64,000 nucleotides of DNA, taken from NCBI RefSeq assembly GCF_028641065.1, contig NC_073382.1, forward strand, positions 68,758,001 through 68,822,000, written 5' to 3'. The translations under genes and the position numbers were made by a program. The stretch comes from Leucoraja erinacea. Taxonomy: Eukaryota. A model generated the notes under the pieces. It was not told where the DNA came from and searched no databases. It saw only the letters and a program-made list of their open reading frames with translations. Shown here piece after piece: positions 23,350-23,466 of this stretch; within the stretch, counting starts at the first letter, position 1, and every line of letters begins with the position of its first letter.

Positions 23350-23466
23350 GGTGTGATACGTGTTCCTGCTCCATGTCAATATGCGTGCAAGCTGACAAGA
23401 TTGGTGGCCGAAAACATTCACAGAGAACCCGACCTCGAGTTGGCCGATCGCCTTTTCTTCCTGTGA
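23350..23466 (+). CDS. PIWIL4: PIWIL4-like terminal coding exon
   Basis: ttgcag|[41 protein letters not shown] followed by TGA. This is a canonical PIWI C-terminus, but with Cys in place of His in CQYAHK. Confidence 0.94.

Follow-up and report, generated by a model that had tools for sequence, protein, structure and literature searches.

A skate PIWIL4 with cysteine in place of the catalytic histidine: a probable non-slicing PIWI whose active site has probably long been drifting

Results and discussion

The last eight coding exons of PIWIL4 of the skate Leucoraja erinacea lie in the 64,000-nucleotide stretch of DNA analysed here (hereafter the window), and the slicer tetrad that they encode, DEDX in its complete form (X = H or D), is incomplete and reads D-E-D-C. 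Our preferred reading, to which we give a probability of about two in three, is that the gene encodes an intact PIWI protein that binds piRNAs but does not slice, that its active site has been drifting since jawed vertebrates arose, and that the cysteine is incidental. Non-slicing PIWIL4 is of a known kind (mouse, pig); the state in cartilaginous fishes and the loss throughout PIWIL4 of the residue equivalent to AGO2 His600 seem unreported, and no description of either was found in the largely open-access literature searched. Both touch on why nuclear PIWIs do not slice and on when the vertebrate nuclear piRNA pathway arose. Cartilaginous-fish PIWIL4 would be a natural and old non-slicer, of which D-E-D-C itself is the least informative part.

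Gene model and coding integrity

We fitted exons to the NCBI Leucoraja erinacea piwi-like protein 4 (P0039) over the window plus 30 kb upstream (contig G000:C6). The resulting model has 18 coding exons, ten upstream of the window and eight within it (Table 1), and its translation is identical to that record over 783 aa. All 17 introns are GT-AG, with no stop and no frameshift, so the intact frame that the first-pass annotation had read over the eight window exons continues through the upstream part of the gene, and judging by its sequence skate PIWIL4 is no pseudogene. The tetrad codons are GAC at 13970 (D555), GAA at 15146 (E592), GAT at 19464 (D624) and TGC at 23386 (C758), all in agreement with what had been read before, including the motif CQYACK in the last exon. 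In alignment with MIWI (PDB 9s0z; the query was the close relative P0001), the cysteine falls on the histidine of CQYAHK, and E592 aligns with the finger Glu of QEL.

Table 1. Features of the skate PIWIL4 locus and a candidate partner gene (window positions unless a contig is named)
Feature	Position	Strand	Remarks
PIWIL4 coding exon 11 of 18 (aa 455-479, MID)	2672..2744	+	Exon model identical to P0039, GT-AG
PIWIL4 coding exon 12 (aa 480-545)	11292..11489	+	Exon model; MID residues Y492, K496, Q508, Q530, K534 (guide 5' pocket; role by homology)
PIWIL4 coding exon 13 (aa 546-578)	13943..14043	+	D555 at 13970 (tetrad 1); R558 at 13979 (His600-equivalent, His lost); T565 (Ser610-equivalent)
PIWIL4 coding exon 14 (aa 579-602)	15109..15179	+	E592 at 15146 (glutamate finger, tetrad 2)
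PIWIL4 coding exon 15 (aa 603-653)	19402..19555	+	R623; D624 at 19464 (tetrad 3); E638
PIWIL4 coding exon 16 (aa 654-695)	20809..20934	+	K665 at AGO2 R710 position
PIWIL4 coding exon 17 (aa 696-745)	21455..21602	+	Exon model
PIWIL4 last coding exon 18 (aa 746-783 plus TGA)	23350..23466	+	C-terminal Leu783 retained
Cys758 codon TGC, tetrad position 4	23386..23388	+	CAC (His) in PIWIL1 and PIWIL2 of same genome
Weak matches to shark N-terminal PIWIL4 exons	G000:C6, ~59.8 kb and ~41.5 kb upstream of the first base of the window		tblastn
SPOCD1-like candidate, TFIIS_M plus SPOC	G000:C26:8688243-8720937	+	Loci L019, L024-L028; SPOCD1-like residues in SPOC exon

For the shark N-terminal PIWIL4 exons, tblastn gave only weak matches in the skate (E 0.04 to 4); they lie upstream of the annotated start, one by ~39 kb and the other by ~21 kb, and both have in-frame stops beside them. 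An RG-rich N-terminus is missing from the annotated skate protein and may have been lost. Four RNA runs carrying the same species label (tissue unknown) were placed on positions 11200-24600, where depth was almost confined to intronic repeats and was 0 to 0.67 in the bins with exons 13-18. The intronic repeats near 11.5-12.4 kb have very deep RNA coverage, from other copies. Broken reverse-transcriptase-like frames occur downstream of PIWIL4 (25874-26674, 30601-31327, 37843-39769 and 57483-59477), which from their motifs we take to be mostly LINE-like, with one LTR-retrotransposon-like frame near 30.6-31.3 kb.

Orthology and paralogues

Exon 12 finds its best matches in the piwi-like protein 4 records of skates, sharks and a ray. 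We built a maximum-likelihood tree from 54 selected proteins over 751 columns, with six active-site columns removed and skate PIWIL2 as outgroup. It places the skate protein inside the PIWIL4 clade (100/100) and, there, within the cartilaginous-fish PIWIL4 group (100/100); forcing skates into PIWIL1 is rejected by the AU test (p 1e-48). Angiomotin_C exons lie 105 kb downstream on the same strand, which fits the conserved gene order Fut4-Piwil4-Amotl1 described in the available text of PMC8574217. Tree and neighbouring gene thus both bear out the orthology proposed in the first-pass annotation. PAZ (PF02170) and Piwi (PF02171) domains are precomputed for the protein's cluster. The skate genome also has separate PIWIL1 (contig C25) and PIWIL2 (C35) genes, both DEDH with the His codon CAC and both retaining the equivalents of His600 and Ser610. 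Skate PIWIL4 is 55% identical to skate PIWIL1 and 76% identical to chimaera PIWIL4. An AGO-like exon at G000:C26:17976167 (L004) has one TAG within its match, which may be an intron edge or mark a broken copy.

The fourth tetrad residue in cartilaginous fishes

Across 16 cartilaginous species, position 4 of the PIWIL4 tetrad is Phe in 12 (11 sharks and the chimaera Callorhinchus), Cys in three skates (records of the genera Leucoraja, Amblyraja and Rhinoraja), Ser in the electric ray Narcine and His in none. In PIWIL1, 17 of 18 cartilaginous records carry the His, the exception being Heptranchias, with an unrelated C-terminus. By parsimony, the tetrad His likely gave way to Phe in the ancestor shared by chimaeras, sharks and rays, and the catalytic His appears to have been missing from cartilaginous fishes since before the chimaera/shark split. 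The skate Cys is then likely to have arisen later from Phe or Ser by a single base (one base separates any two of Phe, Ser and Cys), and because of this it likely carries no special meaning, being an incidental and neutral by-product of relaxed constraint. The first-pass annotation had reasoned that His to Cys needs two base changes. That is true of the codons, but it is probably not the path that was taken, and the Phe and Ser states of the relatives argue against a direct step from His to Cys. Its proposal of an independent loss holds insofar as the cartilaginous loss of His is separate from those of coelacanth, squamates, frogs, pig and primates, but the loss likely occurred in the cartilaginous ancestor, as Phe and not directly as Cys. 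Special conservation of Phe in sharks, which was also considered, is unsupported, as the branches are too short.

Single shark records show further tetrad losses, namely Cetorhinus (D-E-H-F, D624H; P0043), Chiloscyllium plagiosum (D-E-V-F, D624V; P0006) and Hemiscyllium (A-E-D-F, D555A; P0053). A search over 430-1371 aa found no PIWIL4 record for Pristis, Hypanus, Hemitrygon, two Mobula and Stegostoma, all of which have PIWIL1 records; the gene may have been lost in zebra shark and in the sawfish-stingray group, or its annotation may be missing. The lamprey Piwil1-like protein, in the part of the supplement alignment of PMC8574217 that is available, has His at D+3 and still carries the finger Glu and the final His.

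Active site, guide pocket and fold

We compared 117 columns, each of them invariant or almost so in PIWIL1 and conserved to 75% or more among 148 distant representatives. Skate PIWIL4 is unchanged at 111 of these and differs at six (558, 565, 665, 758, 761 and 765), of which 758, 761 and 765 lie on one predicted helix (752-768). In AGO2, His600 and Ser610 hold the glutamate finger plugged in (available text of PMC7015924). In the corresponding His600/Ser610/Arg668/Glu683 network of skate PIWIL4, R558 and T565 replace the His and the Ser, and R623 and E638 are kept. K665 was considered as a sign of lost slicing and set aside, as the MILI structures name a Lys there (K853). Residues with roles in guide binding by homology are invariant in all 16 cartilaginous species, both in MID (Y492, K496, Q508, Q530, K534, L783) and in PAZ (Y238, Y243, Y271, Y272, P310, E311). 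An alignment-based model of the protein reached pLDDT 91 and pTM 0.87, with MIWI, MILI and HILI as its best structural matches (TM 0.86-0.90), although such a model speaks to fold and not to activity; a single-sequence fold was unusable (pLDDT 34).

The fourth tetrad residue is a metal ligand at site A (PMC10772731, in the part available), and Siwi H874K, a substitution to Lys and not Cys, loads piRNAs with almost no slicer activity (available text of PMC7015924). No slicing assay of any Cys-bearing PIWI was found in the literature searched. Taken with the retained pocket residues and predicted fold, the altered active site suggests that skate PIWIL4 likely binds guides and targets and likely does not cut RNA.

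Erosion across PIWIL4

The loss is not peculiar to cartilaginous fishes. Among 143 PIWIL4 records, of which 131 were scorable at all four positions, only 4 have DEDH and 64 the DDH triad; all 136 scored PIWIL1 records (of 165) have the triad and 131 have DEDH, the other five being gene models of one tortoise. For counts on trees, isoform and partial records were dropped, leaving 122 PIWIL4 (14 of 136 dropped) and 100 PIWIL1 proteins (65 of 165 dropped by coverage or a bad end). In the 122-protein set, 4 have DEDH, 61 the triad and 74 the tetrad His. The His is otherwise replaced by F, S, N, R, Q, C, Y or K, with at least 13 His/non-His switches on the tree, and its column ranks at the 93rd percentile when all PIWIL4 columns are compared for change. 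Position 4 is Lys in coelacanth, Gln in tuatara, Asn, Ser, Gln or Arg in squamates and Arg in pig; human PIWIL4 (P0132, D-D-A-H) has Ala at position 3, which confirms the YRAG that the first-pass annotation had given, and lungfish PIWIL4 keeps DEDH.

All of the 154 scored PIWIL1 records have the His600-equivalent, which stands three residues past the first Asp; in PIWIL4 it is found in 0 of 122, and the position is mostly Lys or Arg. The usual description of PIWIL4 is of a DDH triad with dispensable activity, yet the full tetrad is this rare and the His600-equivalent is missing throughout. Parsimony would place the loss of the His600-equivalent before sharks and bony fishes split. Such a loss alone is no proof of non-slicing, because 15 of 127 scored distant PIWIs lack this residue with the triad intact and because in the fly Piwi revertant four residues were changed together (available text of PMC7015924). 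Ancestral PIWIL4 probably had a full tetrad, since the tetrad His and the triad persist in so many proteins of the 122 and lungfish has DEDH, and some lineages may still slice.

Within the 117 columns, those most changed in PIWIL4 are the tetrad His, the Ser610-equivalent and the finger Glu (25, 22 and 17 changes; the median is 0 and 68 columns never change), and tetrad columns change more than the others (p 2e-4). The D555 and D624 columns stand at the 50th and 39th percentile of PIWIL4 rates, no higher than the median, so some constraint has been kept. PIWIL4 has a tree length of 10.6 versus 6.1 for a PIWIL1 sample of mostly fishes and reptiles, and in each of 11 matched species pairs it has diverged more quickly than PIWIL1.

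Candidate partner genes of the nuclear pathway

A TEX15 domain gene is present on contig C1 of the skate genome. Two ADD_DNMT3 loci were found (G000:C5:42900959 and G000:C21:36627579) and no third, for DNMT3L, in this genome; the C21 locus may be DNMT3B, a gene given as absent from cartilaginous fish in the available text of PMC7618676. Three genes have both TFIIS_M and SPOC matches, on C5 (PHF3-like), C21 (DIDO1-like) and C26 (Table 1). Four exons of the C26 gene are recognisable, in order and without stops. Against the SPOCD1 structure 8ou1 and against PHF3, its SPOC exon reaches 42 and 47 bits; the C5 and C21 exons reach 39 and 29 with SPOCD1 but 106 and 86 with PHF3. The other SPOC exon of the C26 gene matched PHF3 only, and in the ESM Atlas the C26 SPOC exon is named only as a SPOC domain. 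C26 also carries an ADGRB gene 2.1 Mb from the SPOCD1-like gene, as well as AGO-like genes; human SPOCD1 presumably adjoins ADGRB2, on the chromosome arm of AGO1/3/4. KHDRBS1, used as a synteny marker, had no match on C26, and a PHD-finger pattern search of C26:8.65-8.73 Mb, run with no positive control, returned none.

With good confidence, and as a lead, we propose the C26 gene as skate SPOCD1. Published surveys (PMC11499256, PMC7618676), in the portions available, place the earliest SPOCD1 in coelacanth and report it only from lobe-finned fish and tetrapods; the cartilaginous representative in PMC7618676 is elephant shark, and skate is unmentioned in the available text. With the SPOCD1-like gene at hand, the age of the nuclear pathway becomes directly testable in skate.

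Proposed role and origin of the non-slicing state

In the reading that we prefer, slicing would have become unnecessary once, at the origin of PIWIL4, the His600-equivalent would have been lost before sharks and bony fishes split, and the tetrad would have drifted. The tetrad His would have given way to Phe in the cartilaginous ancestor, and Phe to Ser or Cys by single bases in rays and skates. Going by mutants of other PIWIs, loss of the His as a site A metal ligand would abolish or nearly abolish slicing. As an orthologue of mouse MIWI2, skate PIWIL4 may serve as a guide-directed platform for the transcriptional silencing of transposons in germ cells. Going by orthology and gene content, it may silence in the nucleus together with TEX15 and the SPOCD1-like partner, and cutting would be left to the DEDH-bearing PIWIL1 and PIWIL2. 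Cleavage by MIWI2 is not required in mouse (PMC9385479), and slicing is likewise given as dispensable for mouse PIWIL4 in PMC3431407, as the first-pass annotation had stated; Piwil4 was found in testis from adults of the species studied by Gutierrez et al., elephant shark included (PMC8574217), all in the parts of these papers that are available. Tentatively, and with the odds somewhat against it, one may go further and propose that the last common ancestor of jawed vertebrates already had a nuclear PIWIL4 that did not slice, by a founding change of the His600-equivalent as in fly Piwi followed by many independent losses in the tetrad, and that skates keep an ancestral PIWIL4-SPOCD1-TEX15 module without DNMT3L.

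The same pattern could have arisen if slicing had been actively selected against in cartilaginous fishes and separately elsewhere, as a convergent adaptation, since cleavage of the nascent transcript would set the silencing complex free. A slicer version of fly Piwi does release partly paired targets after cleavage (available text of PMC7015924), the His column is among the faster-changing ones with its 13 switches, and Phe has been retained in 12 of 12 sharks and chimaera. We nevertheless hold this to be unlikely: replacements of so many kinds look as if they came from drift, the DDH triad is kept in about half of PIWIL4, and an unchanged Phe is unsurprising on shark and chimaera branches that sum to only ~0.5 changes per site. 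The convergence suggested in the first-pass annotation is real at the level of residues, but the pattern is explained no less well by constraint relaxed since PIWIL4 arose than by repeated selection against slicing: one change is PIWIL4-wide (122 of 122 lack the His600-equivalent), the replacements are varied and the triad survives in half of the orthologues.

A very different view would have PIWIL4 slowly decaying and near-dispensable in cartilaginous fishes, with the Cys a part of general decay. A divergence faster than that of PIWIL1 in every matched pair, the species in which no PIWIL4 record was found and an RG-bearing N-terminal exon that was not clearly found in skate all lean that way. 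Against them stand an intact reading frame with all 17 introns, 76% identity to chimaera PIWIL4 and 111 of 117 deeply conserved columns unchanged, with the changes clustered at the active site, and we consider general decay improbable. There is also a slim chance that the Cys758 thiolate restores a metal ligand and leaves skates with residual or Mn/Zn-dependent slicing. Cysteine can bind soft metals, the Cys is common to three skate genera, and D555, E592, D624, R623 and E638 are all retained; but cysteine is a poor Mg ligand, its likely predecessor here is Phe, unable to bind metal, the sister lineage has Ser, the His600- and Ser610-equivalents are lost, and none of 127 scored distant PIWIs has Cys at this position. 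An assembly or sequencing error in TGC can be dismissed for practical purposes, as the first-pass annotation had expected: near-zero exon depth in the four RNA runs leaves the codon unseen in reads, but Amblyraja and Rhinoraja records share the Cys and none of the 16 cartilaginous species has His.

Comparison with known systems

Skate PIWIL4 is orthologous to mouse MIWI2, human HIWI2 and pig Piwil4 by tree and neighbourhood and shares with them a degenerate active site. It differs in keeping the finger Glu and both Asp without the His, whereas most tetrapods have Asp at the finger: the tetrads are D-E-D-C in skate, D-D-D-H in mouse (from the supplement alignment, in the part available), D-D-A-H in human and A-D-D-R in pig, whose triad is given as ADR in the available text of PMC3431407. 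The annotated skate protein also differs in having no RG-rich N-terminus. Drosophila Piwi (DVDK, a non-slicer; PDB 6kr6), as far as the available description goes, has likewise lost the tetrad His and has K617 and A625 where skate has R558 and T565. It is no orthologue, however, and has lost the finger Glu as well, and its non-slicing was measured, whereas that of the skate protein is predicted from sequence. The slicers PIWIL1/MIWI and PIWIL2/MILI share domains and predicted fold with skate PIWIL4 but retain DEDH and the His600- and Ser610-equivalents. Human AGO1 and AGO4 (DEDR and DEGR) offer a parallel, as paralogues independent of slicing whose fourth tetrad residue has been replaced (PMC12292337 and PMC10772731, in the portions available), although they belong to the AGO clade and use miRNA guides.
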